The position numbers and the translations under genes are program-made. A stretch of DNA of 57,335 nt from Candidatus Buchananbacteria bacterium RIFCSPHIGHO2_02_FULL_56_16 (GTDB lineage Bacteria > Patescibacteriota > Patescibacteriia > Buchananbacterales > UBA6539): assembly GCA_001817495.1 (NCBI GenBank), contig MHIL01000023.1:1-57335 (forward strand), in the 5' to 3' direction. Shown one piece after another: positions 22,364 to 46,830 of this stretch. A model generated the notes under the pieces. The model had not been told where the DNA came from, did not search any database, and saw nothing but the letters and a program-made list of their open reading frames with translations. The number at the start of each line of letters is the position of its first letter. The stretch's first letter is position 1.

Positions 22364-23218
22364 TTGAAAAAAATGGCCCAATCAGCCAAAAAATCAACCA
22401 ACTTAACTATCCTGTCTGATATCTACCAAGAGCAAGAGACCGGATCATCGGCGAACCGCGGCGAGCGGTACCCAGTCAGCGAAAAAATTAAGGCGTATTT
22501 TAACGCCCCCCAAACGGTGGAAAAGTGGTTAGCGGGGGCGGTTTTATTTTTCGGCGCCGCTGGCATCATCTTTGGTTTTAACCACTTTAAAAGTTTGATT
22601 GCCAAACCCTTCGACCGTCCGCTGCCCGAAAGCAACACCAGCTTCGCCGCCGCGACCAACCCTGTTGATCAAGACCTGCTTGGCTTACGCCAGAAAGACA
22701 CGGACCAGGACGGCCTCTCGGACTACGACGAGCTCTACGTCTACCAGACCAGCCCCTTTCTCGAGGATTCAGATTCGGATGGTATAGAGGATCAGAAAGA
22801 AATTGCCAGTAATAGCAACCCCAACTGTCCGAAGGGCGCTGATTGCACCGGCGCCGCGGCCGAACGTACCGTGGCTGAAAATACCGCGCCAGCCGCGGCC
22901 GACCTGGACGCCGGCTCGCTTCGGACATTGCTGCAAAACGCCGGCGTATCAGCTGATGTGCTGAACGCCATCAGCGATGAGGAGCTGCTGCGCACCTACC
23001 TCGAGGTAACCGGCGGTACGGTCGCGAGCTCCACCGCCACCACGGCGGGGCCGGCCCAGCCGGCGGGCAGCTCATCGGCCGCTGACCAGATTAGTCAGCT
23101 TACCCCGGCCCAGCTGCGGCAGCTGCTGCAAGAGCAGGGGATTCCGCCGGAAACGTTGCGTCAAGTGAGCGACGAGGAGCTTCTTAAGCTGGTTTCAGAG
23201 ACGCTTCAGGGTTACTAA
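22364..23218 (+). CDS. Membrane-anchored protein with thrombospondin-type-3 Ca-binding repeats and a duplicated C-terminal helical motif
   Basis: It has a TM segment and DTDQDGLSDYDE...DSDSDGIEDQKE repeats. The motif LR.LLQ..G......L..(I/V)SDEELL occurs twice. The start is TTG at 22364 or ATG at 22373, and the gene ends 6 nt before the giant gene. Confidence 0.6.
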   Translation: MKKMAQSAKKSTNLTILSDIYQEQETGSSANRGERYPVSEKIKAYFNAPQTVEKWLAGAVLFFGAAGIIFGFNHFKSLIAKPFDRPLPESNTSFAAATNPVDQDLLGLRQKDTDQDGLSDYDELYVYQTSPFLEDSDSDGIEDQKEIASNSNPNCPKGADCTGAAAERTVAENTAPAAADLDAGSLRTLLQNAGVSADVLNAISDEELLRTYLEVTGGTVASSTATTAGPAQPAGSSSAADQISQLTPAQLRQLLQEQGIPPETLRQVSDEELLKLVSETLQGY

Positions 23219-23224
23219 ACTACC

Positions 23225-26200
23225 ATGATACACCAAGTACACCAAGACAAGCAGCGCGAGGCAAACCGCAGGAGCCGGCCGGTGGCGAGGTTCATCCTGT
23301 CGGGTTGCATGTTGCTGACGCTGGCGCTGGGCTTGGTCGCGCCGGCAATGCTCTACCCGACCCCGGCGGCCGCGGCCGGCATACCGACCTTTGACGCCGC
23401 GAACCTTCGAGCGTGGTTTAGCCAAATCGGCTATAACTTCGCTGAACAAGCTGAACGTCTAGCACAGCAGATCGAGAAGCGGACGGCGGCGATTGCTTTC
23501 AAATCAGCCTTACATTTATTCCTCAACAACCTTGCTTACGATTCGGCGACCTGGCTGGCCGCCGGCGGCAAGGGCCAGACCCCGTACTTTCATACTGATA
23601 GCTGGGGAGCGTACCTGACCAAGGCCGCTGACGGCGCGGCCGGTGATTTTATCAGCAAACTCGGTGAATCGTGGCTTGACGGCTTCAACGTCTGCCAGCC
23701 GGATCTGCCGTTTCGGATTAACGTGGCTCAAGGGTTTCAAGACAATTTTATCCGTCGCCAGCCCGACTGTACCGCCAGCGAACTGGCCCGAGACTGGGAG
23801 CGCTTCGTCCAGCGCGACGACTTTCTTAGCCAGTTCGTCAAGCAATTCAATTCGCAGCAGAACGAGGTTCTCATCGGCTTGACGCTTTGGGACAAGTACT
23901 ATCAAGCCCTCTCGTTTGAAACCAAGACTAAAGAGCAGGATCGAATCGAAGGCCAGGGTTTCCAGCCGGTTACGTCGGCGATATCCGGCAAGATTCTTAC
24001 CCCCGCCAGCCTGACCAAAGCCCAGGCGGATGCCTTGATTAACAATCAGGCCGACGCCGAGAAAATCAGCACCGGCGACATCGTGGCTGACGCCATCAGC
24101 ACGTTTATTAATACCTTAGCCGGCAAGCTGTTTCAGCGGCTGTTCAAGGAAGGACTGGCGAGCCTGCGGGATGATGATGATGCTCGGCGAAGTTTCATTA
24201 GCCGTGATCTCTATACCGGTGAGAGCGGCCGCGACCTGTTCACCGGCCGGCAGGCGGCCGAGGCGCGCTACGTAACGCTGGTTGACGCCGGCATCATTAC
24301 CGGCGGGCCGTACGAACTTTTGCAGCAGCTCGCCACCTGCCGGGATTTGAGCAACCCGGGCCCGGAAGAGTGCGTCATTGACCAAAATTTTCGTTTGGCG
24401 ATTGAGCAAGAGATGACGGTTCGGGAGGCGATTGACGCCGGCTACCTGGACGGCAGCGCGCCGTTCGGCTTTATTTCCCCGGGGGTTGCGCCGCCCTACG
24501 CCGGGGACAAGAAGGGCTACCCCTACCGCAGCCTGCTGATTCTGCGGGCCCACCGGATCATCCCGGTTACTTGGGAGGTGGCCGCTAAAATTATTGATGA
24601 GGGATTTACCGGCAGCGACCGGGTCGTGACGCTGAATGCCTTGATTGCCGAGTATGATAACTCGGACAGCCCCTTCTACCGCCTGATTGACCAATACTGG
24701 GTGCTGAAAGCGCCGGAAGCGTTCTGCAAGGCGGAAGGCTACGGGCCGGTCATCATCAGCGATCAGGTCAGCAACGACGGCCAGCGGATCGTGACGCGCA
24801 GCCAGTACTGCGCCGACTACCAGTCGTGCATTGAGAAAGACAGCAAGGGCAAGTGCATCTACGGCTACTGCACCGAGGAACAGCCAACCTGGAACCTCCA
24901 GGCCGAGAGCTGCCTGCCCGAGTACAGCACCTGCCAGACTTTCGTGAACGGCGGCGGCCAGACGGTTTCCTACCTCCAGAATACCCTTAACTACAACAGC
25001 TGCAGCGCGGACAACGCCGGCTGCCAGTGGTACTGCCAGTCGTACAATGTTCCGAGCGCCACCTGGGCTTGCGTTAATGCCGGCGAGCAGGTGCTGAAAC
25101 CGTGCGCCGCGCCCAGCGGCTGCCCGCTCAACGCCGGCTGCAGCATCGCTGAAGCCGGGACATTCTGCACCGACGCGGTCAGTGGCGCGAACCTGACCAT
25201 CAGCACCGCCTGCAGCCCCAGCACCCAGTGGTGGCAAGCCGATCTCTTCGGAACGGGTGTCGGCGGCTGCCAGGCCGGCGCCAGCTGCACCGTCGAGTAC
25301 CAGGGAGTTCAGTGCGTCCAGACCGGCTGCGAGAGCCGCCAGAACCTGCTGCCCAACCCCGGCTTTGAAACCGCCGCCCCGGCCGGCACCCTGGCCGCGA
25401 AGTGGGGCGGGGATCCGGCCTACTTCGAACGGGTGAGCGGCGGGCAGGAGCGGATCCACCGCGGCCGCAGCAGCGTGCGCTTCTACAATGCCGGCAGTAT
25501 GGCCGGCGTAACGATGCGGTCCGATGAGCTGACCGTACCCCGCGCCGGCGCCTACACCGTGAGCGGCTACGTCTTTGACCGGCTGAATGTCGGGTCAATC
25601 TCGTTCAGCGTTTTGGTAAACGGCGGCGCCGTGGCTGACCCGCCGGTCATGCTGACCCAAACCGCCAAGAATCGCTGGTACCAGGTGAGCTTTGATACGC
25701 CGGCGCTGAACGCGAACGACAGGATCAAGATCGTGGTAATCGTCGCCGGCGAGCAGGTCAGCGGCCTGGCCTGGTTCGACGACTTCAGCCTGACCGAGAG
25801 CTGCCTGGTCAATCCGGTGACCCTGACGCTGGCCGGCGCCATCGCCGAAGATGAGAGCAAGATCCACTTCGACCGCGACGCGAAGCAGTGCAGCGCCGAA
25901 GCTGACGGCTGCTCCCAGTTCTACGCTTCGCCGACCCGGCGGATCAGCAACCTCCTGTTTAGCGTTACCGACCCGAGCTTTGAGCTGTACCAAGACAGTA
26001 CCACCCAGCCCGGGGATCAGGATTTCAAGAACTGGACTGCCGTCAGAGCCGTTGTTAAAGCCAGCAGCGATGCTCACAGCGGCGGAGCCGCGATGCAGCT
26101 GCGAGACGACAGTGGCGGCGCCGAAACCTATGTTTCGCTCACGTTTGATACGGGCGAGCCGCTCAACGAGCGGATGTTCATTGTTTCCTACTACGCGAAA

Positions 26201-29200
26201 ACGGTCAACGCTGATGACTTTCAATGTAACGGCAGCGATGAAAATATAGTCCCGCCAAATCTTCGAGGGGGCTGCCATGAGTGGGACAAGAATTACGCTA
26301 ACTTTGTCCGATCGCCTGACGCCGTCGGCGGCAACATCATGATCAACGGTATCAGTTCAGTTGGGCTCAACGACCAGTGGCAGCGGTTCTCGGCGGTCCT
26401 CGCCATCAACGATCCCGTGTTCGACGCCGCTAAAAAACTGGAAATTATTTTGTACACTATTACTCAAGGTACCGGCTCGATCCTCTACGATGACATCCAG
26501 CTCGAGGAGGTTACCGGCAGCGTCCGGACTGAAGCGGTGCCGTTCCAAGGCTACACCACGCTGACGGAAACCCACCTGCGCAAGGCGCCGGACTACCTTG
26601 GCTGCCAGGGCTTCAGCCTGGAACGGCCCAGCGACTATGTGCTCAACGGCGTGACCGAAGCCAGCTGTATCGGTGACACTCTGGTTTGGCGGCCGGAGAG
26701 CTGCGTTGGCGGCTTCTGCTGCCGCCAGATAGACCCGCCCGAGTGCGCCGGCTACGCCCCGTACTGCCAGGCCGACGAGATCGGCTGCCAGTCGTTTACG
26801 CCGCTCCAGGGCGGGCTGCCCGTTCCCGGTGTCGCCGCTGCCGACGACTACTGCGGCGCTGAATGCGTGGGCTACGACGCGTTCAAGCAGGCGCCGACCT
26901 ACTTTGAGCGGACCCAGTCCATCGAATTCTTCATCCCCAAGACCGCGGAACAGTGCAGCCTGGCCCAGGCCGGCTGCGACGAGTTCACCAACCTCGACGA
27001 GGCAGGGGCCGGCGGCGAAGATCGCGAGTACTACCAGTACCTGCGCCAGTGCACCAAACCCGGCGCGGCCGGGGTGAGCTGCGGCACCTTCTACAGCTGG
27101 CAGGGTTCGGACGACAGCGGCTATCAGCTCTCAACCTACAGTTTAAAGACCGCCGGTGCCAGCCCCAACGAGGTCATCGAGTACAATCCGGCCAGCCCCG
27201 ACGAGGTCGCCTACCCTGACGCCTGGTGCGACAACAAATCCGACGGTGATGGCGACGGTTCACCAGACTGCTGCGACGCCTCTGAAGACTTAACCCAGAA
27301 CCCGTTCTGCCGGGAATTCTTCGACCGCGACGGAGGCGTTCACTACGTCCTGGAACAAAACACGATCACCTGTTCAGATGATTGCCACCCCTACCGAAAG
27401 ACCCGCCTCGGAGAAACCGATGCCGAAGCCCAGGCGAACTGTTCGGCCTCGAACCCGGCCTACACGGGAGCGGCACTGAATCCCGGCTGGCAGGACAACG
27501 CCTGCGTCTACTACGCCATCCCCGATCAGGGTGTCGCCTGCCCGGCCCAAGCCGCGGGCTGCCGCGAGTACCGCGGCAACGCCGGCGGCAACGTCTTCAC
27601 CGCGTTTTACGACAGCTTTGAAGACGGCGACAGCCTCGGCTGGCAGACCGGTCAGATGAGCAGCCTGGCGCTCTCGGTCGGCGGCCACTCGATCAAGAGC
27701 CAGTCGGGCACGCTCCAGACCATGGCCGCCTCGATGGGCGCGGCAACCTGCGACGCTGCCCTGACGGTCTGCGACGGAGCAACGTATCCCTGCTACCAAG
27801 CGGCGACGAACACCTGCCTCGCCCAAGAGCCAACCGGCCAGACCTGCGAGGTCGCGCTTGGGACGACTGATTGCGGCGTGTTTGATGCCGCTTTCGCGAG
27901 CGGCCGTGACTACCTGCTCACCTTCTGGGCCCGGAGCGAATCGGGCAATACGCCGGTTACCATGCAGCTTACCGACAGCGCTGGGGCGACGACAATTGCC
28001 CAAGTCGCGCTGACCGCGAACTGGCAGTACTACACGTTCGGGCCGATCCGCTACGACTGGCCGCGCGGCACCAAGCTGGTTGCCCGGAACGCGAATAGCA
28101 AGGACTTCTTCTTCGACAACGTTACCTTCAAGGAGATTACCGGCTACGTCTACGCCATTAAAAATTCCTGGCAGACGCCAACGAGCTGCGACACCAACCC
28201 GTTCGTCAGCCCGGCGGTGCCCGCGCCGCAGTTTATGCTCGGCTGCCAGCAGTACCGGGATTCCAGTAACCAAATCCACAACCTCAAGTCGTTTTCCAGC
28301 CTCTGCCGCGAAGACGCGGTCGGCTGCGAAGCGCTGCTCGACACCTTTAACTCGGACGACCCGTTCGCGAGTGAGTTTAACACCGCCGACGCCGCCGGCA
28401 CGGTGACGGTACCCCAGGATCGGGTGGTTACCATGGTCAACAGCGCCGAGTTCCGCTGCGACTCGACCCAGGAAGGCTGCCAGCGCCTCGGCCGGCCCAG
28501 CCTCGACCAGAGCGGCGCGGTGGCCGGCTACACCGATGCGTACGTCTTGAACGATCCGGATCAGTACCCAACCACGCTCTGCGGCAGCGGCGAAGTGGGC
28601 TGCGCCGAGTTTCAGACCAACCATGGCTTCTTCTACTTCAAAGCGCCCGGGCTGCAGACCTGCGAGTACCGGCAGATTCCCAACCAGCCGGGCGGCTTTG
28701 GCTGGTTTAAGATCGGTTCCGCCTCGGCCACGCCGGACTGCCCGATTACCCGCTCGCCTTTGGGTATCGTCCACCCGGCGACCGGCTGGACCGGGCTGTG
28801 TCCGGCCGGCGCGGCCAGCTGCACCGAGTTCATTGATCCGGTGAGTAACAATGCGAAGAACTTGATTTTTAACGTGGACTTTAAGCAGGATCTCGACCTT
28901 AACGGCAAACCCGACGGCTGGAGCAGTTTGCTCAGCGCGCTGGAGCAAACGATCACCCTGACGCGCAACACCCTCTACACCGTGGCGATCAGCTCGAACG
29001 GCACCGCGCTGGACAGTTCCGATCTTGAGGTACAGATTACCGGCTGCCCGGGTATCACTTCACCCGACCACTCAATGGTCAGCGCCGGCACGGACGCGCT
29101 CCAGCTGCCGGTCTCCGACTTCAAGGGCGACCGGCTGCGCCGGCCCGACCTGCCGGATGAACGGCAGTACTCGGCCCGGTTCTTCGTGCCGGCGGCGGGC

Positions 29201-32200
29201 GGCGGCACCTGTACGCTGCGGCTCAACCCGGGCGGCGCCTCCTCAATCACCAGCCTCTTGCAGGCGGTGGCCGTACGCGAGAGCGGGGTGGACTACGTGC
29301 TCGCAAGCGACGTTAACAAGACCGGCTGCAACGGCATCGTCAACGAGCTCAACGGCTGCGTCTTGTTTAACGACCGCAGCGGTGTCAACTACAAGATCGG
29401 AGAGACCGACAACTCGTACCTCCGCTTCGACGCCGACATGAGCCGGCCGGGCGTCAACAGCAGCGTGCCGGTGGCAAACTGCGGCGGCGCCTGCGACAGC
29501 AGCACCATTTTGAAGGTTCGTCCGGACCGAACCTGCGGCCAGTGGCTCGACTGCCAGACCAAGGTTAAGTCGGTTGACGCGAGCGGCAACGAGGTTACCT
29601 ACTGCGTCGAGCTCGCGGCTTGCGATGAATTGAACGAGTCCGGCGAGTGCACGAACTTCATCTTATCCGACCGCCAGAAGGTTAACGGCTCGAATGACAA
29701 CACCACGGTTGAGTTCCTTAACCACGATAAAATTGCCTACCTCTCGGGCTACGCCAAAGCCGGTTCAACCCTTGCCGACGCAACGGGTGCGCAGGGGGTG
29801 ATACCCGGCGCGGCGTTTGATGCCGCTAACACCTTCAACGGCTACTACCCGTTCAACCTGATGAGCCAGTTCGGCGAGGTGGCGAAGGTGCCGAACGGCA
29901 GCTTTGAGGACTACCCCGAGGTCGAGTACCCGGTTGGTTGGGCCTGGCAGAACGGCGACGGCCGGCGCTGGGGCAGCCACCTCTTCCGGGTGATCTCGAG
30001 CGTGGTTGAGGCCCAGGACAACGAGGGCATCACGCTGCAGGGCCGGGCGTCGCTTAAGCTGAATGCAGACAACGTCGTCATTTCTGATCCGATTTCAGTT
30101 TTACCCAATACCGACTATACCTTGAGCGCCAGTATTAATACGTTAAACCTTCAGCCGACTGAAGCCGAGGCGATTGTTGATCTGGTTGACGCTTCGGGTA
30201 ACCAGCTCGCCCCGCCCGTCGAGCTCCGGCTCAAAGCGCGGCTGGACTGGACCAGCCTTTCGGTGATCGTTAACCGTACCGCCATTACCGGTACCGAAGT
30301 CAGGGTTCGCCTCCGCAACTTCCATCCCAATACCGCACTGATTGCCGAGTCTTCCTACTTTGATAACATCCAGATGCTGCCTACCCTCGAGGTTCAGGCG
30401 CTGCCGCCGTACACCGGCGAGAAGAATTACGTCAGCCGCTCCTGCCGCGTCTTCCCCCAGCAGGACTCGCTGGCCTGCAGCTACCGCGATACGGCCGGCG
30501 CCATCCAGCAGGGCTGGTCCGGCTACTGTTTGGAGCCAGACCCCCAGCGGTCCGGCGTCTGCCTCCAGTGGTGGCCGGTTGACCTGATCAAGGGCGACGC
30601 CTTCGGCACCTACATTGGCTACAACGGCCGGCTGCCGCTCTACTACTGCATGGAGACGAGCATGTCCACGACGCGGATAGAGTTCCTTAAAGAAGGAGAT
30701 ATGACGATCAGTGGTGACTATAATGACGTAACACCAGAGATTGATAAGAACAATTTGGATAAAGATAAATGTATTACGTATAAGAAGCCAAATGGCGGAA
30801 AACTTGAATTTCCCGATGGGTCGAGCGTTACGTTAACCGGCGGAAATAGATGCGGGTCCGACTGGGTGGTCGGCGTCTGTAAGTATGAGGGAGAAAAAAC
30901 CGCTGATATTGATATTTTTCATAAGAACCTCATTGACCGGATTAGGGTCTTTAGCCTTGCAGATGATGGTGACGTTGCCCACAGCATGGAGGGCTGGCTT
31001 GGTTACTGCTTTAACATGTCCGTGGAGGGTAAGGTCGAGTTTTTTGATGTTGAAGCAACTCCTAAATTTGGAGGTACGGTGCCAGTTACCGCCAGTCCAA
31101 ACCAAACTTGGCTCGCGGCCACTAACGGCAAGGTTTGCTCATACGGGGGTAAAGCAATTTTTGACAAGGAAGGATTACTGGATCAGATGTGGTTTTGGAT
31201 CGCCGATCAATCTAGTAAGTGCACCCATAACTTCGAGTGGCAAATTGGGGTTGATGTTCATCTGAATCGGAACTATTGTACGCTGCTGGCTCAAACCGTG
31301 ACGCCTGTCGGTGAGAACAAAGCCTGGGTGTCACGGGTGGCAGAAGGCAGCTCGTACGACGACCTCGAGTGCACGGTTAATGGCACGAAGCCGCTCTTCT
31401 CGATTAACGGTGCCTGCGCGCCGGGAGTTGACTGCGTGTTCGTCAATAGCGAAAAGACGTACCGTTGCGATACCGATGCGAACTTTGACGGTGTACCGGA
31501 TGGAGCACGCTGCAGCGTCTGCGAGTACAACACCGACTACGCGCCGTTCGGCGCCGCGGTACCCGAGGATCCCTACAATATTACCAACTCGGACAAGCTC
31601 TACTGGCAATTGCCGGACACGGAAAACTTTGAGCCGCCCTACCAGGCGCGTATGGGCCAGGTGCCCTACACCTATGGCACGGCGCCCAGCGCCTACAGCA
31701 CCTACCTCAAGCGCCTGTTCGCCCAGAGCTTCAGCTTCTGGAAATGGCAAGAGATTGGGGATCTGGTTTGCCTAGGCGGAACTAATGACGGAAAGGTCTG
31801 CACTGATAGCAGCCCGCAATGTCCCCAAGGTTCATGCATTGATCGTGGCACCCTTTGTCAAGGTAATACCTCAACGCGAGGGGCGGAGTGCAACGTGGCA
31901 GCGTGTGGTTTTGATAGCGGTGGTGTGAGTATCCCCTGCATAGAAGTTAATGACCTAAGTGAGTGCGAGGGTAGTGCCTGTGATAAAGTTTTCGCTTGTG
32001 ACTTCAACGCTAACGGCAGTTGGGATGTTGGCACAGATAAGCGCTGTTGTCCCGTGTCTGTTGCCGGTGGTCCGGATCCAACTTGTGAACAGAAGTATAG
32101 CTGTTCAGATGATAGTTTGAATGCGGGGCAAGAGTGTACGTTCAATGCTGATGAGTGTCCGGGTGGCACCTGCGCGCAGCAGCGTCAGGGTTTCCAGCCG

Positions 32201-33133: not shown

Positions 33134-33155
33134 TACGAGCAAGAAGAATTTCTTA

Positions 33156-33640
33156 AGTACCCCGTTCTTGGGGTAAGAGGGGGAACTAAGGTTAAAATGA
33201 TCGGGCCCGCTACGCCAACGCGTTAGCGTGGCGAGGGAGTTACGAGAATAGGTCAAAGCCGTAACCCCTTCTAACTTCCCCTTAACGTAAGGGGAAGGAT
33301 ACTTGGGCAGCGCTTTATGCTTATTCGCAGCATTTGCCTTGACAAGAAGAACATCGTAAGCACCCCCCTCTTGGGTTAAGAGGGGGAGCTAAGGTGAGAT
33401 TAAGTGGGCCCGCTACGCCAACGCGTTAGCGTGGCGAGGGAGTTACGAGTAATGCTGAAGCCTGCCCGCGCGCGGCGCGCAGGCGGGCCGTAACCCCTTC
33501 CCCGCCTCGACTCGCCTTCGGTAAAGCCACGGCGAGGCGGGTAACTTCCCCTTAACGTAAGGGGAAGGATACCAGGTAAGAGCTTTATGCTTATCTGCCT
33601 GAGCGTTGCACGCAGACAGGTTCGCAGCATTCGCATGAGT
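33156..33640. repeat. Two tandem copies of a structured intergenic module of about 200-280 nt (candidate ncRNA or MITE pair)
   Basis: Copy 1 is about 33156-33348 and copy 2 about 33357-33640. They share identical blocks of 44 nt (33203-33246 = 33407-33450) and 31 nt (taacttccccttaacgtaaggggaaggatac). Copy 2 differs by three inserted hairpins. Confidence 0.75.
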
Positions 33641-33678
33641 TCGCATCATTAGCATCGCGTATTGAAAAAAAGATTACG

Positions 33679-36600: not shown

Positions 36601-38430
36601 GGCGTCAATCAGTCACAAGCAGGTGCCTACTACAAACAAGGCGATCTAACCAAGGCACAAAAGACTTTCCTCGGGGATAAATATCATACGCAGTTGTTAA
36701 ATGAAGGGGTTGATGAAAAAACGGCGGTAGAGAGGTGGGCGGCTTTCGACGAGACATTGGACAAGGTTGGTTCCCTCCGGATGACCAATAATAGCGGCTA
36801 TGCCTCACGCCTTGAAACCGGCCGTCATGAACGGGCCCACCCGGAAATTGAGAAGCTTGCTCCAGCCCAGATTGATGAAATCTACAATTCAATTGAGAGC
36901 GACCGCCGACTCCAGATGGAAGCTGAAGTCAAGGCTCGGTGGGGTAACATTAGTCCGCTGGATGCCAAGAAAGAAATTCTGACCCAGGGTTTGGCCAGCT
37001 ACGGCCGTTCAGATGCCCGCGAACCGTTGCAGCTCACTGACGCGGCGGCTCGAGCCATGGCGGCAACCGGTGCCGTTAAGATGAGCAACGCGGCGAAGCA
37101 GCGGCTCGATCAGGCGTACCCTGAGGCTGCCGTGACCAAGGGAGAACTCAAGACGATTGATAAGCAGCGTGCCGCAACGGCCAAAGCCCAGGCGCGTGAC
37201 GCTAAGGCCGCGGCTCAAGCCGAACGCCAAACCGTTAAGGAACGGCAGCGGCAGCTGCAGCAGCGCGAGGCACAAAACGCGCCGGTATACACCCAGGCGA
37301 TCAGCGCTTTGAGTACGCTCAATCCCAGCCAGCTCGGCCAGCTGTGGGGTAAGCTGTCAGCGGCTCAGCAGTCGGCGCTAACGGAGGAGGTACGAGAATC
37401 CTACCCGGCAGCCGCCCGCTCTGTTCCTGTTGGCGATTACAACTTGCAGCTGGCGGCGTTGAGCCGGGCGCTGGCGCGAACGAATCTCGAACCGGCGGCG
37501 AAAGATAGTTTGCATCTCGACGCAACCGTCGTCGAGGCGATAAAGAGCCAGGGAATCGATACGGCATCAGTCGGTACTAAAAATGAGCTTTACCGTCAGG
37601 CGCAGCAAACTCAGGGTACCTACCAGCAGCGCCGCACCGAGTATGAGCAGCTAGCGGCTCGGAAGGCTAACTACGGTGATGCGATGCGGCAGAAACAGGC
37701 GGAAAACAACGCCGAGGTTAAGCAGCGGAATGAAGCGGCCCGCACCGCCGCCAGCCGTGGCGATATGCCAGCCGCCGCAGAGGCAAGAAAGATGGCTGAA
37801 TTCTTACAAAAAGAGAACGCTCGCATTGACCAAGATGTGGCCAAAAAAGGCAAAGAATTTGACGTTGATATTAATAAAGCAAAGTCAAAAATGCAAGCCG
37901 CGTTGGATCAGGTTATGGATTTGGAAACTCGGCGTCGACCCGAACCATCAGTACCGCAAGCCGTCCACCAAGCCTTCTCAACCGTTGCTCACCCGGTCAA
38001 TGAACAAGCCCGCCAGCAGGCGCAGCAGGTTATTGCGCAGGCGCCACCGGCCGAGGTTGTTGCGGCAGCGCAGGAAGCAGTAGATAAAGAAGGTGAAGAG
38101 CTGAAGCGGGCGACAGGCAGTGCTGATAACGGGGCAATCCTTGCGGTATTGACGAGTATTGAGAGTATTTTGGAGGGGGTGAAATCATCACTTGACAAAT
38201 TATCTGGAGACAAGGTTAATAGCGCTGAGCGGTCGCACTTTGATGACCTCATGCGTCAAGTCAGTTTGAGCCGAGGATCGATGGCCGCCGGTGGTCAGCT
38301 CGACCCAGGATCGGTGGCTGGGCTGCTTCGTGATGTCAACAATAATTTAAAGAGCATCTATCGCAAGACTGGTCAAAAAACGGGCAGCATGCCGACGGAA
38401 ATACCACCCAAGACTTCAGGTGAGGAATAA
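33679..38430 (+). CDS. 1583-aa polytopic membrane protein (VirB6/TrbL-like N-terminal region) with a long Ala/Gln/Lys-rich helical C-terminal extension
   Basis: It has a signal peptide and about 6-8 TM segments in aa ~90-400. About 1150 aa of soluble, coiled-coil-like sequence follows. The functional call comes from topology and context only. Confidence 0.45.
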   Translation: MKTWRNILNRRTVLTALCLFALAVTVFTVAVSAPLVLAQEEPPRPTSDYEQDDLGPLEAGSSGAFNTRPTPVKKAEAEESNVFLSTFVNLLVGGLARIVIWLEGFVITALIAILLLVVKYNSFATAGAVSNGWTLVRDVANLFFVVVLLGIALATILRVESYNFKKLLPKLILMAILVNFSKVIAGLIIDFAQVVMLTFVAAFAGVSGAGNMVTTLQIQSIITYNWSNAAEASAANFTGTALLMAIMLLITIGVLLVMLVVLVMRIVMLWVLVVLSPLAYIMAAFPQGQRYAQQWWQEFTKYVIVGPVLGFFLWLTFAVASAGDIAQKEFGSQKGLAAAGAGDALSAKLAKQAGVQTKIGQTDHLLSFIIAIAMLMGSLVITQQIGVAGSQFAGSMFNKIRQTGLKALLAPGRAVGWTAKTAAKAPFQFVGRKVNEAIGEGKLPAWASPAGMVRGWGARRAELYDVSKRKAAAAGHEKWEQLFTGTSLPRVSQIELAEESKFAKDFADVYDKEQMAAEWVGLRNAPQSAEIRAKKRGLIKAGGVAGFLDDIMAHPETKAHTRNYIKNLYKTTKDDQLKAAMDEKDEKTGLSLMDNVNDDKGAWYNWQTLHFFLQESLGSDQAGMTTMQTLEDIGKKNGHPEYGGHDTYRSSLEGGHDEMEMERIYDQKDAAGKIIRKSGQKRMQTELSKMQGRSRLGLAPHAFMAMNNDGTYAMGMPERLAATAMFGAQGARIFEHSQKRDWTMAMGGSPDEVNWVEGQETEVANFDKPDASLRNIINHAKGFAFLMQSAANPREPVDVIVKTAWKTTGGKGEPQFQVNGKVYGADEFLSEFGEQAHATPSPAPTPGSAPAPGPSAPMADIDIAKHERTKQAIDAFSAQTGLSAADFYQSRSYKADQYTAQGDFERNEQLMGGWRQEIGRIRPDVDQANPEAVEQAIREEQGKVRGVKSASGKGEGEQAGVGLDFSDKDVQRIFGVNQSQAGAYYKQGDLTKAQKTFLGDKYHTQLLNEGVDEKTAVERWAAFDETLDKVGSLRMTNNSGYASRLETGRHERAHPEIEKLAPAQIDEIYNSIESDRRLQMEAEVKARWGNISPLDAKKEILTQGLASYGRSDAREPLQLTDAAARAMAATGAVKMSNAAKQRLDQAYPEAAVTKGELKTIDKQRAATAKAQARDAKAAAQAERQTVKERQRQLQQREAQNAPVYTQAISALSTLNPSQLGQLWGKLSAAQQSALTEEVRESYPAAARSVPVGDYNLQLAALSRALARTNLEPAAKDSLHLDATVVEAIKSQGIDTASVGTKNELYRQAQQTQGTYQQRRTEYEQLAARKANYGDAMRQKQAENNAEVKQRNEAARTAASRGDMPAAAEARKMAEFLQKENARIDQDVAKKGKEFDVDINKAKSKMQAALDQVMDLETRRRPEPSVPQAVHQAFSTVAHPVNEQARQQAQQVIAQAPPAEVVAAAQEAVDKEGEELKRATGSADNGAILAVLTSIESILEGVKSSLDKLSGDKVNSAERSHFDDLMRQVSLSRGSMAAGGQLDPGSVAGLLRDVNNNLKSIYRKTGQKTGSMPTEIPPKTSGEE

Positions 38431-38456: not shown

Positions 38457-39707
38457 ATGATTGACAATCGTTTAGAAAAAATAAAAAAAATCACGCCAGA
38501 CCAGTTAGAGACGGCCGATATTTTGGATTTGTTAAAACTTTTAACCAGTGGGTACTTGGACGGTTTTCAAGTTGGCGAAGCCAAGGAACTTTGGTGGGCA
38601 TTAAGTCGGCTGATCACTGGTCTTCAAGCTAAAACCATAAGTCAAAAAACAATGAACCAAGTTAATCGCTTGATGGTTGACTTAGGTTGGTTGGCTTTGC
38701 CTTTTTTACCGGATTCGGCAGTTGAAAATTTATTTAAGGCTGATTTATTAAGAGCCCTTAGCCTTGAAATTGACGTCTTGGCAAAAATAAAAACTTTTTT
38801 TAGTTTTTCTTACGGTAATTTTAATTTACTGGAACAGCAGCGTCGGCTGATGATTAGCGCGCTTAAAATAAATGAAGAATTAATTGGCGATCGGGCAATA
38901 AAAATTTCCGACGTCGGTGAAGAAGTGGCGCCGGCGATTAAAAATTGGTTAAAGGATTATGATCAGTCCAGTAACGTCAATCAGCGCTCAAGGCGCTTAA
39001 ATCTAGTTGAGTATATTAACACTAATAATAATGTTCGTCAGCTGTCAGCTGAGCAAAAGGAAACATTGCGCCGGGTTTTGCAAGTTTATGATTTTGTCCG
39101 ATTTTTAAACCAGCTAGAAAGTGTTAGTGAAACCGGCCACAAAATTCCAGCGGAAAAAGTAACTGTTTTGGACCGAGAGGACCTGGCATCATCACCGGTC
39201 GAAGACGAATCATCTAAAGAGCAGCAAGAAATTTTTCAGGCTTATCAAGGTGATCAAAAACGGGCCAAGGCAATCGACCGCGAGCAGGCAAAGCTGGCCA
39301 AAAAAATCAGCGGCAAGGTTGACCAGCTCCCCGCCATTTTTTACCAGGCGGTTCAGACCAAAAACGTTGCCGCCACCGTCGCCGCGCTGCGGCTGATGGC
39401 CGAAACTGACACGCTGGGAAACTTTTTGCAAACCGATGAGAAGCTCAAGCAATTTTTGAGCCTGACCTGGGAAAAACAGTATGGTAAGGCGACGGCCGAG
39501 GCGTTTAAGCGCAACCCGAATCAGCCGAAGTTCGTCAGGCTATTCTTACAGTACGTTTTGCAGCAGCGGCTGGGTTTGGACAGCAGCGAAGCGGCGCGGC
39601 TGGGGCTGCACATCGGCAATATATTTGTCAAGAGTGGCAAAAAAGAGTATAATAGGCTGGCGTACTTTGACGTGAAGAGCAAGCAGTTTAGGTGGTTTGA
39701 AGGCTAG
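38457..39707 (+). CDS. Hypothetical protein (416 aa), AT-richer than its surroundings
   Basis: It is a long ORF with coherent codon usage and a helical, Lys/Glu-rich sequence. I recognised no motif. Confidence 0.6.
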   Translation: MIDNRLEKIKKITPDQLETADILDLLKLLTSGYLDGFQVGEAKELWWALSRLITGLQAKTISQKTMNQVNRLMVDLGWLALPFLPDSAVENLFKADLLRALSLEIDVLAKIKTFFSFSYGNFNLLEQQRRLMISALKINEELIGDRAIKISDVGEEVAPAIKNWLKDYDQSSNVNQRSRRLNLVEYINTNNNVRQLSAEQKETLRRVLQVYDFVRFLNQLESVSETGHKIPAEKVTVLDREDLASSPVEDESSKEQQEIFQAYQGDQKRAKAIDREQAKLAKKISGKVDQLPAIFYQAVQTKNVAATVAALRLMAETDTLGNFLQTDEKLKQFLSLTWEKQYGKATAEAFKRNPNQPKFVRLFLQYVLQQRLGLDSSEAARLGLHIGNIFVKSGKKEYNRLAYFDVKSKQFRWFEG

Positions 39708-40161: not shown

Positions 40162-40254
40162 GAACTACAACCTAATTCCTAACTCCTAACTCCTAACTCC
40201 TAACTCCTAACTCCTAACTCCTAACTCCTAACTCCTAACTCCTAACTCCTAACT
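40160..40254. repeat. Right arm of the inverted repeat, followed by a (TAACTCC)x10 perfect heptamer microsatellite just upstream of metK
   Basis: The arm is aagaactacaacctaattcc. Ten perfect TAACTCC units span 40180-40249, followed by a partial unit. The metK ATG is at 40259. Confidence 0.9.
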
Positions 40255-40258
40255 AAAC

Positions 40259-41425
40259 ATGCCCAAACGCTACATCTTCACCTCCGAGTCGGTAACCGAG
40301 GGCCATCCCGACAAAATTTGCGATCAGATTTCTGACGCTATCTTAGATGAATTGATAAAGCAGGATCCCCACTCGCACGCGGGCATCGAGACGCTGGTGA
40401 CTACCGGATTGGTCGTGGTTGCCGGTGAAATCAGAACTAAGGGGTACGTTGATATCGCCGCGGTCGTCCGCAAGACGATCAGAGAAATCGGCTACGATGA
40501 CCACGCCATCGGCTTCCACTGGGAGGATTGCGGGGTGATGGTGGCGATTGACGAGCAGAGCCCGGACATCGCGCAGGGCGTTGACGCCGGTCGCGGTAAG
40601 TTTAAAAAACAGGGCGCCGGCGACCAGGGGTTGATGTTCGGCTACGCGACGCGCGAAACGCCCGAGCTGATGCCGCTGCCGATCATGCTGGCTCATAAGC
40701 TGACCCACCGGCTGGCTCAGCTGCGCAAGAATAAGACGATGCCGTACCTGCGGCCGGACGGCAAAGCCGAAGTGGCGGTCGAGTACCTCGGCGGCAAGCC
40801 GCGGCGGGTTGACACGGTTGTCATCGCCGCCAGCCACGGCGAGCACGTGCACGAGCAGCGGGTGGAGCGCGACGTCATCAATAAGGTGATTAAGCCGATC
40901 TGCAAGCGCTACCTCGACGGCAAGACGCGGTTCTTCGTCAACGCTACCGGCCGGTTCGTCAAGTGCGGCCCGCCTTCGGACGCGGGGCTGACCGGCCGAA
41001 AAATTATCGTTGACACCTACGGCGGCCAGGGCAGCCACGGCGGCGGCGCGTTCTCCGGCAAAGATCCTTCCAAGGTTGACCGGTCGGCGTCATACATGGC
41101 GCGCTATGTCGCCAAGAACATCGTGGCGGCCGGACTGGCCGACCGTTGCGAGCTGCAGGTGGCGTACGTGATTGGCGTCGCCGAACCGATCAGCATTCTG
41201 GTTGACACGTTTGGTACCGGAACGATCAGCGAAGAGCGAATCGTCAGCCTGGTGAAAAAGCACTTTCCGCTGACGCCGCAGGGAATCATAACGCACCTCA
41301 AGCTGCTGCGGCCAATCTACCGCGCCACCGCCGCCTATGGCCACTTCGGCCGGAGCGGATTTAGCTGGGAGCAGACGGACATGGCAGCGAAGTTACGGCG
41401 CGCAGCCGGGTTGAAATCCCAATAA
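40259..41425 (+). CDS. metK: S-adenosylmethionine synthase
   Basis: It has [28 protein letters not shown] and other canonical MAT motifs. Confidence 0.97.
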
Positions 41426-43094: not shown

Positions 43095-43562
43095 ATGCAG
43101 CAATTCGTCGTCCCCCAATTCATTGACGTTGAAGATAAAATCATCGGTCCGATCACCGTTCGGCAATTTTTGATTTTGCTGGCCGGCGCCGGGGTGTCCT
43201 TTGTCGCCTACAAGCTCTCCGACCTCACCCTCTTTGTCTTTGAGTTCGCGGTCATCTCGCTCATCTTCTTCACCTTCGCGTTCATCAAAATTAACGGCAA
43301 GCCGATTCACTATCTCTTCCTTAACCTCATTCAAACTTCTCGTCGCGCCCGCTTGCGGGTGTGGAAGAAAAAAGTTTTTCATAAGGCCGAGCTGCATAAG
43401 TTGAGTAAAGAAAAAAAAGCCGAGCTGCCGGTGGTGGTTATCGCCAAAAATAAGGTCAAGGCTTCGCGGCTGGCCGAGCTGTCGCTGATCGTTGACACGG
43501 GCGGCATCTACCAGGGCGAGGCGCTCCCGCTGGCTAAGGGCGGCAAGGAGCAGCTGTTATGA
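43095..43562 (+). CDS. PrgI-family (VirB3-like) small T4SS membrane protein
   Basis: It has the N-terminal VPQFIDVEDKIIGPITVRQF motif followed by two TM helices. Its stop overlaps the next start (ATGA). Confidence 0.65.
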   Translation: MQQFVVPQFIDVEDKIIGPITVRQFLILLAGAGVSFVAYKLSDLTLFVFEFAVISLIFFTFAFIKINGKPIHYLFLNLIQTSRRARLRVWKKKVFHKAELHKLSKEKKAELPVVVIAKNKVKASRLAELSLIVDTGGIYQGEALPLAKGGKEQLL

Positions 43563-44236
43563 AATCAAAAAAGTTAGCCGGTAAAAAAGTTCAGGCCTCC
43601 ACCCAGCAGTACCTCGACATCGCGGAGATTAAAGAGGACACGGTGGTGCTCAAAGACGGAACGCTGCGGTCGGTCATCTTGGTCTCGAGCATTAACTTCG
43701 CCCTCAAATCGGAAGACGAACAGAACGCGATTATCGCCGCTTACATCAGCTTTTTGAACTCGCTCGATTTTCCGCTCCAAATTTCTATCCAGTCGCGGGT
43801 GCTGGACGTTGACGGCTACCTCGACCGGCTCAAGAAGCTGGAGAAAGAGCAGACCAATGAGCTGCTCCGCATCCAGACGACCGAGTACCGCCAGTATGTC
43901 TCTGAACTCGTCAAGCTCGGCGACATCATGACCAAGCGGTTCTACGTAGTCGTGCCGTACGATCCGGTTTCCGACAAGCAAAAGTCGTGGCGGAACCGGT
44001 TCACGGAAGTTTTCAGCGCCGCCAGCGACCTTAAGCTGAACCAGGAGCAGTTCCTCAAGCGCCGGCGCGCGCTGTCGCAGCGGGTTGAGCACATCCTTAG
44101 CTACCTGGCGAGCATGAGCCTTAAGGCAGTGGTGCTCGACACCCAGAGCCTGATTGAGCTCTACTACAACACCTACAACCCCGGGCTGTACAAGCGGGAG
44201 AAGCTGGTTGAGGTTAATAAAATTCAAGTTGAGTAG
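43559..44236 (+). CDS. VirB4/TrsE-type N-terminal domain encoded as a separate ORF
   Basis: The STQQYLDIAEIKEDTVVLKDG.LRSV..VSSINF.LKSEDEQ..II..Y..FLNSLDFP.QI pattern resembles the N-terminus of Gram-positive-type VirB4 ATPases. It ends 2 nt before the ATPase ORF, in another frame. Confidence 0.5.
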   Translation: MKSKKLAGKKVQASTQQYLDIAEIKEDTVVLKDGTLRSVILVSSINFALKSEDEQNAIIAAYISFLNSLDFPLQISIQSRVLDVDGYLDRLKKLEKEQTNELLRIQTTEYRQYVSELVKLGDIMTKRFYVVVPYDPVSDKQKSWRNRFTEVFSAASDLKLNQEQFLKRRRALSQRVEHILSYLASMSLKAVVLDTQSLIELYYNTYNPGLYKREKLVEVNKIQVE

Positions 44237-44238
44237 CC

Positions 44239-46158
44239 ATGGCGATTACCCCGCGGACAATCAAAGAGCAAGAGCAGCGCCGCTTGTTGCCGCCCGAGGC
44301 GGCAGTCGCGCCGGCCGAGCAGCGCGAGCGCGAGGCGGGAGCGGCGGCGGCGGAAAAATCAGTCATCGAGGAGGAACGAATCTTCCGCGAGGGCGTGGTT
44401 TCGATCAAAGACCTGATCAGCCCGGCCGCGATGGAGGTCAACCCGCGCTTCATTAAGCTCGGCGAGCGGTTCGCGAGCACGCTGTTCGTCATCAGCTATC
44501 CGCGCTACATCTCGATCGGCTGGTTCGCGCCGATCATCAACCTAAGCGTGGCGCTGGACATCTCGATGTTTTTTTATCCGGTGAAATCCCACATCATCTT
44601 AAAGCAGCTGCGGAAGAAAGCCGGCGCGCTGGAAGCCCAGCTGCTCTCGGACCGGGAGAAGGGCGCGCCGCGCGATCCGGTGCGTGAGACGGCGCTGCGC
44701 GATATTGAGAAGCTGCGCGACGACCTCACCCAGGGTACCGAGCACTTTTTTCAGTTCGGCCTGTACGTCACCGTCTACGCCGACACCAAAGAAGAGCTCG
44801 GCCGGCTGACCGAAGACATTGAGTCACTCTTCGGCTCGCGCCTCGTGTACTCCAAGAAGGTGCTCTACCAGGCGGAGCAGGGATTTAACTCCACCCTGCC
44901 GATGGGCAACGATGAGCTGATGATTGGGTTTAACATGAACTCATCGCCGATCGCCGCTTCATTTCCGTTTATTTCCTCCGAACTAACCTCCGACGACGGC
45001 GTGCTCTACGGCATCAACCGGCACAATAACAGTCTGATCCTCTTCGACCGGTTCTCCCTCCAGAACGCCAACACGGTGGTGTTCGCCACCTCCGGCGCCG
45101 GCAAGAGCTACGCGATCAAGCTCGAGGTGCTCCGGAGCATGATGCTGGGCACCGACGTGCTGGTGATTGACCCGGAGCGCGAGTACAAGCACCTCGCCGA
45201 CGCGGTCGGCGGGACCTACATCAACATTTCGTTGAGTTCAGAGAGCAAGATTAACCCCTTCGACCTGCCGCGGCCTATCGGCGAGCAGCGGACATCTGAT
45301 ATCATCCGGGCGTCGGTCATCACGCTCAAGGGTCTGCTGCGTCTGATGCTGGGCAGCCTCACCCACCAGGAGGACTCGATCATTGACCGGGCGCTCCTGG
45401 AAACGTACGCCAAGAAAGACATTACCTCGGAGTCCGATCTCGCCAAGATCGAACCGCCGATCATGCAGGACTTGCAAGACGTGCTCGAGGGTATGGAGGG
45501 CGCGGCTGATTTGGCGCTGCGCCTTAAGAAGTACACCCAGGGGACGTTCTCCGGCCTGTTCAACAGCCCGACCAACGTTGACGTTAATAACCAGCTCGTG
45601 GTCTTTTCGGTCCGCGACCTCGAGGATGAGCTGCGGCCAATCGCCATCTACACGATTGTCACCTACATCTGGAACGTGGTGCGCTCGAAGCTGAAGAAAC
45701 GCCTCCTGATTATTGACGAAGCCTGGTGGCTGATGCAGAATGAAGATTCGGCCAAGTTCATCTACGCGCTGGTCAAGCGCTGCCGCAAGTACTACCTCGG
45801 CGTGACCAACATTACCCAGGACGTCAATGACTTTCTGCTTTCGCCCTACGGCCACGCCATCGTCAATAACTCGGCGCTCCAGCTCTTGATGCGCCAGTCG
45901 CCGGCGGCGATCGACCTCGTCCAGCAAACCTTTTTGCTGACCGAGGGTGAGAAGTACCTCCTCCTCGAGTGCGGGGTGGGCGAGGGGATTTTTTTCGCCG
46001 GCGAGAAGCACGCCGCGATTAAAGTCGTCGCCTCCTATTCGGAAGACCAGCTGATCACGTCTGATCCGCGCCAGCTCCTGGAAATTGAAGAGGCCAAGCG
46101 GGAGTTTGAGCAGCAGCTGCCAAACCAAGAGCCCGCGGCTGAACCAGCCGCTCCCTAG
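44239..46158 (+). CDS. VirB4-like T4SS ATPase
   Basis: It has Walker A (FATSGAGKSY) and Walker B (RLLIIDEAWWLM). It also has the upstream ISP....V.....KLG.....TLF...YPRY...GW pattern typical of VirB4/TraE. Confidence 0.8.
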   Translation: MAITPRTIKEQEQRRLLPPEAAVAPAEQREREAGAAAAEKSVIEEERIFREGVVSIKDLISPAAMEVNPRFIKLGERFASTLFVISYPRYISIGWFAPIINLSVALDISMFFYPVKSHIILKQLRKKAGALEAQLLSDREKGAPRDPVRETALRDIEKLRDDLTQGTEHFFQFGLYVTVYADTKEELGRLTEDIESLFGSRLVYSKKVLYQAEQGFNSTLPMGNDELMIGFNMNSSPIAASFPFISSELTSDDGVLYGINRHNNSLILFDRFSLQNANTVVFATSGAGKSYAIKLEVLRSMMLGTDVLVIDPEREYKHLADAVGGTYINISLSSESKINPFDLPRPIGEQRTSDIIRASVITLKGLLRLMLGSLTHQEDSIIDRALLETYAKKDITSESDLAKIEPPIMQDLQDVLEGMEGAADLALRLKKYTQGTFSGLFNSPTNVDVNNQLVVFSVRDLEDELRPIAIYTIVTYIWNVVRSKLKKRLLIIDEAWWLMQNEDSAKFIYALVKRCRKYYLGVTNITQDVNDFLLSPYGHAIVNNSALQLLMRQSPAAIDLVQQTFLLTEGEKYLLLECGVGEGIFFAGEKHAAIKVVASYSEDQLITSDPRQLLEIEEAKREFEQQLPNQEPAAEPAAP

Positions 46159-46171
46159 CAGCCAAGTTCTG

Positions 46172-46247
46172 CTGACTACTGACTACTGACTACAGACTAC
46201 AGACTACTTACTACTACTTACTACTACTTACTACTACTTACTACGGT
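46172..46247. repeat. One-armed tandem arrays of family-1 words: (TGACTAC)x3, (AGACTAC)x2, (TTACTACTAC)x3.7
   Basis: I read these directly. The complement 11-mer ctactgactac occurs at 46176 and 46183. Confidence 0.85.
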
Positions 46248-46254
46248 CTAACCT

Positions 46255-46830
46255 ATGACCCGACGAACCAAAACTGTCATCGCCGTTGCCCTCGCACTCT
46301 TGGTATTGCTGATTATTCTTGGCCTGCTGTGGTGGCTCTGGGGCCGGGGACCGGCAACGCCGACCAACGTTAACCAGCCGATTACGGAACCCGAGCGGTT
46401 GCCTCTTGAGATTATCGATAAGCAGCCGTCGCCGGTGAAAGCGCCGGATGTGGAGGCGTCATTAAAGGCGACCGCCTCGACGTTTACCGAACGTTTCGGC
46501 AGCTTCTCGAACCAGGGCAGCTTTGAGAACCTGGAAGACGTCCGGCCGCTCCTGACCGTCAAGATGCGGGGCACGGTCGACGCGCTCATCGCCGACCAAC
46601 GGAGCACGGCCGCGGCGGACGGTCCCTACTACGGCGTTACTACCCAAGCCCTCGTGGTGACCATCACCGGCTACGACGAGTCGCTCGGTCGCGCTGACGT
46701 AACGGTCAATACCCAGCGGGCCGAGTCAAAGGGCACGACCGCCAATCCAAGAGTTTTTTACCAAAAAATAAACCTCAAGCTGGTAAAAACCGGTGATGCT
46801 TGGAAAGTTGACGAAGCGGTCTGGGAGTAG
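46255..46830 (+). CDS. Bitopic membrane protein (191 aa); possible VirB8-like component
   Basis: It has an N-terminal TM helix and an extracytoplasmic alpha+beta domain of about 140 aa. It lies immediately after VirB4. The functional call is purely contextual. Confidence 0.3.
   Translation: MTRRTKTVIAVALALLVLLIILGLLWWLWGRGPATPTNVNQPITEPERLPLEIIDKQPSPVKAPDVEASLKATASTFTERFGSFSNQGSFENLEDVRPLLTVKMRGTVDALIADQRSTAAADGPYYGVTTQALVVTITGYDESLGRADVTVNTQRAESKGTTANPRVFYQKINLKLVKTGDAWKVDEAVWE

Follow-up and report, generated by a model that had tools for sequence, protein, structure and literature searches.

A type IV secretion locus beside a giant cysteine-rich protein, a probable adhesin, in the chromosome of a Candidatus Buchananbacteria bacterium

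Results

Type IV secretion genes of the locus

We analysed a stretch of 57,335 nucleotides from Candidatus Buchananbacteria bacterium RIFCSPHIGHO2_02_FULL_56_16 (the window, meaning the whole stretch), in which a block of genes on the plus strand encodes the core of a type IV secretion system (T4SS) and, upstream of it, a giant cysteine-rich protein that might serve this system as an adhesin. The core genes code for a VirB4 ATPase, a separate TrsD-type protein, a PrgI/VirB3 protein and an extended VirB6/TrbL protein. All open reading frames (ORFs) named here have intact frames at the coordinates listed in an earlier note on this DNA, which had been made from the sequence alone. The proteins of the window correspond to locus tags A3J59_03035 to A3J59_03120 of Candidatus Buchananbacteria from Rifle groundwater, being either identical to deposited Buchananbacteria proteins or members of the same 90%-identity cluster, which places the DNA in the Candidate Phyla Radiation (CPR) and agrees with the small-genome bacterium proposed in the earlier note. 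Buchananbacteria, Kerfeldbacteria, Falkowbacteria and Uhrbacteria, to which we refer below, we take to be members of class ABY1 of the Patescibacteria according to GTDB taxonomy.

The VirB4-family ATPase (44239..46158, +) matches P-loop_TraG (2e-28), AAA_10 and DUF87, all above the Pfam cut-off, has intact Walker A (ATSGAGKS) and Walker B (LLIIDE) motifs and shares 72-84% identity with VirB4 of other ABY1 loci; a protein of 623 amino acids (aa) within its 90%-identity cluster carries the NCBI name 'conjugal transfer protein TraC'. Only 2 bp upstream ends the gene for a TrsD-type protein of 225 aa (43559..44236, +), homologous to the N-terminal domain of VirB4 but encoded separately, with a precomputed PF26593 TraC-like match, whose family profile aligns with TrsD of pSK41 (hhalign 83%, P=8.5e-6). 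This gene in turn overlaps by 4 bp with that of a PrgI/VirB3-like protein with two transmembrane (TM) segments (43095..43562, +; Pfam PrgI E=2.4e-9, 38 bits compared to a cut-off of 27 bits).

Downstream of virB4 we identified a bitopic protein of 191 aa with one N-terminal TM segment (46255..46830, +), which is probably the equivalent of VirB8/PrgL. Its family profile aligns over 89 columns with PrgL of pCF10 (hhalign 59%, P=9.1e-5), which ranks at the top of the 17 pCF10 proteins compared; furthermore, three family members show weak Pfam matches to NTF2_YvbJ, and the UniRef name of the protein is 'Tim44-like'. The family has no sequence match in the PDB. An assignment as VirB8 equivalent agrees with the phylum survey by Quinonero-Coronel et al. 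(2025), in which VirB8-like matches are found mainly in ABY1 (PMC12102498).

The largest membrane component is a polytopic protein of 1583 aa resembling VirB6/TrbL (33679..38430, +), which has a signal peptide, TM segments confined to residues 80-390 and a soluble tail of ~1,200 aa with almost no Cys, making it an extended VirB6-like protein. Its own match to Pfam TrbL is weak (residues 147-321), and the assignment is supported by the family: nine of 17 TM domains match Pfam TrbL (best 1.5e-6) and none matches any other family, and many full-length homologues bear precomputed PF04610 or PF19590 matches. The TM profile gave no match to PrgH, TrsL or PDB sequences, the profile support thus being that of Pfam TrbL. 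Homologues were found in Buchananbacteria, Kerfeldbacteria, Falkowbacteria and Uhrbacteria; they are 780-2,000 aa long and combine a conserved core of ~350 aa with variable tails. Hence the VirB3, VirB4 and VirB6 assignments and the separate VirB4 N-terminal domain, all proposed in the earlier note, survive the profile tests.

Two further proteins of the block resemble none of the proteins with which they were compared. A soluble protein of 416 aa with no TM segment (38457..39707, +) directly follows the VirB6-like gene and has no match in Pfam, the PDB or, using hhalign, among the pCF10 Prg/Pcf and pSK41 Trs proteins. The second is a Pro/Ala-rich cytoplasmic protein of 433 aa (P433; 41569..42870, +), encoded always directly upstream of PrgI, with 12.7% Pro and a conserved C-terminal domain of ~110 aa; it has no match in Pfam, the PDB or, using hhalign, the same Prg/Pcf and Trs sets.

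The pilin-like genes are located in an operon 10 kb upstream of the genes for the anchored and the giant protein described below and do not adjoin the other T4SS genes. Its first gene encodes a membrane-anchored DsbA-like thiol-disulfide oxidoreductase (10435..11202, +; Thioredoxin_4 3e-30, DSBA 2e-21) with an N-terminal TM segment. It is followed by a VirB2-like pilin paralogue with signal peptide, hydrophobic hairpin and a Cys-rich C-terminal extension with 12 Cys (11212..12063, +; T4SS_pilin 23.0 bits) and by a second VirB2-like paralogue fused to an SLT lytic transglycosylase resembling VirB1 (12020..13150, +; T4SS_pilin 27.0 bits, cut-off 26.6 bits; SLT 7e-17). Both pilin genes have 248 nt in common at 77% identity and are paralogous, in agreement with the two paralogues, one of them a fusion, that the earlier note had described in a DsbA operon at this distance. 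The operon DsbA - pilin - pilin/SLT recurs beside LeuRS in two metagenome contigs at 37-41% identity, in both of which the fusion is kept (L089:9818-10840 and L091:2268-3305); shorter matches in L090 and L092 are cut by contig ends. We found no mention of a pilin-SLT fusion in the available part of the 2025 survey (PMC12102498). A DsbA homologue directly follows the VirB8-like gene in 14 Falkowbacteria-type loci, tying DsbA to the T4SS neighbourhood, and likewise in L087 (19345-21629), where RadA follows next. DsbA being encoded near the T4SS fits the heavy Cys content of the pilins and of the giant protein.

The giant protein and the anchored protein

Upstream of the VirB6-like gene lies the gene for a secreted Cys-rich giant protein of 3302 aa (23225..33133, +), which consists of a conserved N-terminal domain (N-domain), predicted beta-sandwich modules resembling carbohydrate-binding modules (CBMs) between Cys-rich linkers, and a C-terminal stretch. 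It contains 137 Cys in its 3302 aa and has one N-terminal hydrophobic segment and a signal peptide with a likely cleavage site between AAA and G. Neither a C-terminal anchor nor an LPXTG motif was found in the protein; reading by eye revealed a WGDGS motif of the PKD-domain kind in the C-terminal stretch.

The giant belongs to a large family. An exhaustive HMMER search with residues 40-500 against representatives of 50%-identity clusters (E<=1e-3) returned 1,261 cluster representatives, 1,104 of them at E<=1e-10, and among the best 150 of the 1,261 nearly all are 2,000-3,800 aa long and carry the domain N-terminally. With regard to the central region, 124 of 139 matching giant homologues align over most of residues 1150-2150 in a span of similar length. 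A word-indexed protein search with the N-domain or its profile yielded one fragment, compared to the 1,261 clusters of the exhaustive search, suggesting that giant proteins may be under-reported by index-based searches.

We modelled residues 1150-2150 with AlphaFold2 (AF2), resulting in a beta-rich model with a mean predicted local distance difference test (pLDDT) score of 64 and several stretches at 75-90. Foldseek returned 119 PDB matches at E<=1e-3, led by a CBM22 tandem, a porphyran-binding CBM, Cry toxin chains, pore chains of iota toxin Ib and chains of C. difficile CDTb, with TM-scores of 0.60-0.64 for single CBM targets. Pfam CBM_4_9 scores just below the cut-off on one module, and the UniRef name of the protein is 'CBM-cenC domain-containing protein'. 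The model thus predicts for the central region CBM-like beta-sandwich folds typical of receptor-binding proteins, and together with the CBM_4_9 match and the UniRef name this supports, at the level of the predicted fold, a role as adhesin or receptor-binding protein. The description of the giant as extracellular, Cys-rich and adhesin-like in the earlier note is in line with its Cys content, its signal peptide and these predicted folds.

For the N-domain an AF2 model with a mean pLDDT of 66, exceeding 85 in residues 360-500, gave no PDB match by fold, and neither did its sequence profile. Four of 18 giant homologues match DUF4141, the best with 1.6e-5 and 24.6 bits, below the cut-off of 30 bits; these matches, the only ones obtained for the N-domain from Pfam and NCBIfam, cover the signal peptide and the first ~25 mature residues only, and the giant of the window itself gives none of them. 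DUF4141 corresponds to the TraI family and TraJ to VirB6; in listings of conjugative transposons of Bacteroides, DUF4141 genes stand next to traJ or within the tra genes. We regard this as a weak lead toward a VirB5-like role of the giant N-terminus.

The gene of the giant is preceded, at a distance of 6 bp, by that of a bitopic membrane protein of 284 aa (22364..23218, +), which has one TM segment followed by extracellular TSP3-like Ca-binding repeats of the DxDxDG type (TSP3_bac below cut-off). DTDxDGLSDYDE repeats and a CPxGxxC motif are kept in ten homologues. The ORF proposed in the earlier note stands, and its start is probably to be revised, the alignment of homologues placing the conserved and probable start at ATG 22373 instead of TTG 22364. 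The anchored protein is a candidate for a membrane dock of the giant. TSP3-type Ca-binding repeats (1e-17) of the same kind are also present in a YkuD L,D-transpeptidase encoded further downstream (50988-51848), which suggests that this organism decorates its envelope proteins in a shared manner.

Conservation of gene order

We retrieved 80 genome loci with the profile of the VirB6-like TM domain, including flanks of 10 kb, and compared all their ORFs with the proteins of the window. Downstream of the VirB6-like gene, and in a constant order, P433 was found in 55 loci, PrgI in 54, TrsD in 52, VirB4 in 50 and the 191-aa protein in 40, the shortfalls being due in part to contig ends or the 10-kb limit of the flanks. 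P433 is located directly before PrgI in 55 of 80 loci, and the gene of the 191-aa protein directly after VirB4 in 40 of 80. In 25 of 80 loci, and additionally in contig L096, the next gene after the VirB6-like one encodes a homologue of the 416-aa protein.

Upstream sequence of >=6 kb is available in 55 loci, 42 of which encode a homologue of the giant there on the same strand. No more than 4-61 bp separate it from the VirB6-like gene in five close relatives, and the adjacency extends over Buchananbacteria, Falkowbacteria and Uhrbacteria with protein identities of 25-40%. The giant is preceded by a homologue of the 284-aa protein wherever the flank is long enough, which is the case in 12 of 80 loci as well as in L093 and L096. 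A contig retrieved with a giant homologue as seed shows the order KsgA, anchored protein, giant, a 193-aa ORF, VirB6-like and 416-like. The synteny of giant, VirB6-like, PrgI and VirB4 genes, which the earlier note had put forward as a test, is therefore found in most of the related genomes.

These data have to be weighed against an explanation according to which the giant acts at the cell surface independently of the T4SS, e.g. as an adhesin for glycans, as a protein of the envelope or of S-layer type, or as a scavenger of polymers, and its adjacency to the T4SS is incidental. The housekeeping genes KsgA, LeuRS and metK keep the same neighbourhood, unrelated genes intervene between giant and VirB6-like gene in some lineages, 13 of the 55 informative loci have no giant homologue within 10 kb, a hairpin-bearing spacer of 545 bp separates the two genes in the window, and the N-domain has no significant link by sequence or fold to any T4SS protein. 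Speaking for a connection are the short gaps in the five relatives, an adjacency persisting across three lineages at such low identity, the resemblance of the order to adhesin-first T4SS operons of monoderms, e.g. that of pCF10, and the weak recurrent match to DUF4141 (TraI) at the mature N-terminus of homologues. Taking both sides together we consider an independent giant possible, if rather unlikely. As housekeeping genes, i.e. KsgA, LeuRS, metK, comF and recG, are also kept as neighbours, the synteny is in part that of a conserved chromosomal backbone, and the adjacency supports, and does not prove, a functional link between giant and T4SS; such a link is based on synteny, as the earlier note had already pointed out.

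In four Falkowbacteria-type loci a conserved membrane protein of ~190-210 aa is encoded between the giant and the VirB6-like gene (L036:9284-9856, L050:9287-9877, L076:9207-9842 and L081:9269-9889). A 193-aa ORF occupies the same position in L096 (L096:9350-9931) and shows no BLASTP similarity to those four. We considered a remnant of such a ~200-aa membrane ORF in the 545-bp spacer of the window, of which tblastn detected no trace.

Chromosomal setting and neighbouring genes

The block is chromosomal and set between housekeeping genes, with 22 kb of housekeeping sequence upstream and 10 kb downstream, in agreement with the earlier note. A Pfam scan assigned the large flanking ORFs to TrpRS, RNase J, a solute-binding protein, UvrA, LeuRS, FemAB, Sua5, KsgA, ComFC, RecG, YkuD, MPG and ClpC, plus a few unknowns. 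The 57.3-kb window has a uniform GC content of ~57% and no compositional island, the only dip being that at 38-40 kb (46%, the minimum of the window). Promoter and terminator scans were uninformative because the counts of sites were no higher than in shuffled sequence.

The Pfam scan of the window's large ORFs detected neither a relaxase nor a VirD4-type ATPase nor an integrase domain, confirming within the window what the earlier note had reported. An ordinary integrated conjugative element could still have its relaxase, coupling protein and integrase just outside, as the window is not the whole genome and as Patescibacteria, according to the 2025 survey, commonly have VirD4-like genes in other parts of the genome, usually far from virB4 (PMC12102498). 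Such an element is hard to reconcile with housekeeping genes and no integrase domain in the 22 kb upstream and 10 kb downstream, with the source contig of 61.7 kb lying nearly completely inside the window, with the same chromosomal context of the locus across many genomes and with the uniform GC content outside the dip at 38-40 kb. Relaxases are moreover rare in the phylum, with 109 in 103 genomes (PMC12102498). We therefore judge a conjugative element highly improbable.

The VirB8-like gene is followed, after 130 bp and on the same strand, by a gene for a ComFC-like, competence-related protein (46961..47617, +; Pribosyltran match and a weak double zinc ribbon match), with recG next. This suggests an alternative in which the T4SS is a DNA-uptake machine resembling ComB, pulling DNA from the environment or a host to the membrane and passing it on to proteins of competence and recombination whose genes lie alongside, while the giant binds DNA-carrying surfaces or polymers; nucleotides and genes would in this way be provided to an organism presumed to be unable to synthesise nucleotides, as is a general trait of Patescibacteria. 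In line with this, ComF homologues follow the VirB8-like gene in four related loci, and DsbA together with RadA does so in others; comF, recG and radA are associated with virB4 in ABY1 according to the survey (PMC12102498), and H. pylori ComB provides a precedent for a T4SS without VirD4 that imports DNA (PMC11665869, PMC12857230). Against this alternative, the T4SS of Southlakia is essential and its competence dispensable (PMC11665869, PMC12857230), comFC and recG could be mere backbone neighbours just as metK and KsgA, and neither comEC nor dprA is present among the ORFs scanned in the window. On balance DNA uptake appears unlikely to us as the function of this locus.

Spacer, repeats and an IVS-family gene

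The 545-bp spacer between giant and VirB6-like gene (33134..33678) is non-coding and composed of duplicated units, a 107-nt unit and a 53-nt unit being present twice each, with the 53-nt unit carrying the hairpin CTTCCCCTTAACGTAAGGGGAAG. It contains no plus-strand ORF of >=80 aa and has no Rfam match.

A palindromic unit of 29 nt, GCTCGCCACGCTTCGNNGGCGAAGCGGGC, is found six times in the window (none expected by chance), at 4887-4915, 8461-8489, 42236-42264, 42455-42483, 42482-42510 and 56832-56860. All six copies are located inside ORFs and are read in frame: the unit lies on the minus strand in a TPR protein, an SBP_5 protein and ClpC, where it reads PASP(A/T)KRGE, and P433 contains two exact tandem copies reading GSPRFGGEAG on the plus strand as well as one reverse-strand copy with three mismatches. 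The unit is reminiscent of the Rickettsia palindromic elements and has the appearance of a palindromic mini-element read in frame.

Within the T4SS block a gene of the 23S_rRNA_IVP family (23S-rRNA-IVS, Avd-like four-helix bundles; 39769-40161, Pfam) precedes metK (40259-41425, Pfam), and the gap between them is filled by a tandem heptamer array (CTAACTC)n at 40158-40255. Related arrays of the GACTACT/AGTAGTC type occupy gaps at 13193-13290 behind the pilin-SLT gene, at 46168-46221 between virB4 and the VirB8-like gene and at 53767-53835. In relatives the IVS-family gene is found at varying positions, namely after metK, between TrsD and VirB4 and between PrgI and TrsD (L020:16264-16629, L060:17045-17431, L066:15766-16131), behaving as if it were mobile. 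As the gene is Avd-like we considered a diversity-generating retroelement, which we rejected because neither a reverse transcriptase nor a TR/VR-like repeat pair was found in the window.

Discussion

The core of the locus is a Patescibacteria T4SS of an already published kind. Wang et al. (2023) showed that epibiotic growth of Southlakia requires a T4SS of Gram-positive-like type, which has a pilin array but in which no coupling or relaxase proteins are recognisable (PMC10633639), and the survey of 2025 describes a repertoire of TrsD, PrgI, VirB6 and VirB2 with pilin arrays across the phylum (PMC12102498); extended VirB6 proteins have been described as a class (PMC12857230). A perspective of 2024 called the role of the T4SS in Saccharibacteria completely unknown (PMC11665869), and reviews say the same of its function in Patescibacteria, although the system is essential in the one species tested. 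The earlier note's interpretation as a non-conjugative T4SS derivative is supported by our data, and it is not new, since its core features are published (PMC10633639, PMC12857230, PMC12102498). Regarding the core machine, the locus adds nothing new. In the literature searched we found no description of a giant protein beside VirB6, so that the combination of anchored protein, giant and extended VirB6 in one conserved module may not have been reported before.

Our data support, to a moderate degree, a model according to which the locus encodes a Patescibacteria-type T4SS serving cell-cell contact and macromolecule transfer instead of conjugation, the giant being a probable adhesin held by the anchored protein and/or the VirB6-like platform. 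In this model the T4SS parts would assemble into a membrane-spanning channel at the cell surface, possibly with a short pilus, which would establish contact with another cell and transfer macromolecules between the two, in a direction the model leaves undefined and with no conjugation of plasmids. The giant would be exported by Sec, its many Cys presumably being oxidised by DsbA, and would act via its CBM-like modules as the receptor-binding adhesin of the apparatus, in the way PrgB serves the T4SS of pCF10; the co-transcribed Ca-binding anchored protein, the VirB6-like platform or both would keep it at the surface. The explanations invoking DNA uptake or an independent giant overlap with this model on the identity of the T4SS.

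Several observations speak against parts of this model. On the side of the T4SS, the VirB6-like protein of the window scores 19.5-21 bits with TrbL (residues 147-321), under the cut-off of 25.9 bits, the first pilin with 23.0 bits is below the T4SS_pilin cut-off of 26.6 bits, and the VirB8 assignment of the 191-aa protein has a probability of only 59% in hhalign. On the side of the giant, both AF2 models are of modest confidence (mean pLDDT 64-66), 13 of 55 informative loci lack a homologue within 10 kb, Falkowbacteria-type loci have a tRNA synthetase and other genes between the giant and the VirB6-like gene, the hairpin-rich spacer of 545 bp parts the two genes in the window, and KsgA, LeuRS, metK, comF, recG and radA are likewise conserved neighbours.

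Going beyond this model, the giant might be the missing tip or stalk adhesin of the apparatus, i.e. the counterpart of VirB5/PrgB, whose N-domain docks on the extended VirB6 or on the tip of a VirB2-like pilus and whose CBM-like, disulfide-rich modules recognise cell-wall glycans of the host. We regard this extension as speculative and would sooner expect it to fail than to hold; if it were true, the variation across >1,200 clusters would help to set the host range of ABY1 episymbionts, and the giant would give a direct handle on T4SS function. Should the giant truly be part of the T4SS, it would already fill the place of the host-recognition component missing for ABY1; the survey of 2025 detected no adhesins such as PrgB (PMC12102498). 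The module of anchored protein, CBM-rich giant and extended VirB6 is a testable lead to T4SS function that offers concrete targets.

Comparison with known systems

The VirB6 paralogues of the Rvh system of Rickettsiales are an example of extended VirB6 proteins. The 1583-aa protein shares with them a polytopic VirB6 core followed by a large hydrophilic C-terminal domain, whereas no sequence similarity was detected between the tails, and a single gene is present here instead of an array of paralogues. With ComB of H. pylori the locus has in common that VirD4 and relaxase are missing and that there is a link to competence, a ComFC-like gene here adjoining the VirB8-like gene. ComB differs in belonging to a diderm and in having VirB7, VirB9 and VirB10 but no giant adhesin.

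Closest in kind are the T4SSs of the Patescibacteria clade, represented by SEML1_0006-0019 of Southlakia epibionticum and by the survey of 2025 (PMC12102498). As in these, the locus is chromosomal and without relaxase, VirB4 is encoded beside TrsD, PrgI/VirB3 and VirB6, VirB2-like pilin paralogues are present despite a monoderm envelope, and comF and recG are neighbours as in ABY1. Compared to what is described there, the pilins of the window are located 10 kb off in a DsbA operon, one of them being fused to SLT, the VirB6-like protein has a tail of ~1,200 aa, and the anchored protein and the CBM-rich giant form a conserved module before the VirB6-like gene.

The T4SS belongs to a lineage related to the conjugation machines of monoderms (MPF-FATA), without the genes specific for conjugation. 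Compared to pCF10 (prgA-prgL, pcfC) and pSK41/pGO1 (trsA-trsM) the window has no relaxase, VirD4/PcfC, topoisomerase or SSB genes, its VirB6-like domain matches Pfam TrbL but not PrgH or TrsL, and the locus is chromosomal and vertically conserved; the giant, moreover, shows no detected similarity to PrgB and no LPXTG. The likeness lies in order and family: PrgI, TrsD and VirB4 of the window follow each other as trsC-trsD-trsE do in pSK41, and the family of the 191-aa protein aligns best with PrgL among the pCF10 proteins compared. In pCF10 the adhesin gene prgB is located upstream of prgH to prgL on the same strand, with the genes for VirB6, VirB3, VirB4 and a VirB8-like protein thus following it, so that an arrangement in which the gene for the giant comes first has a precedent in kind.

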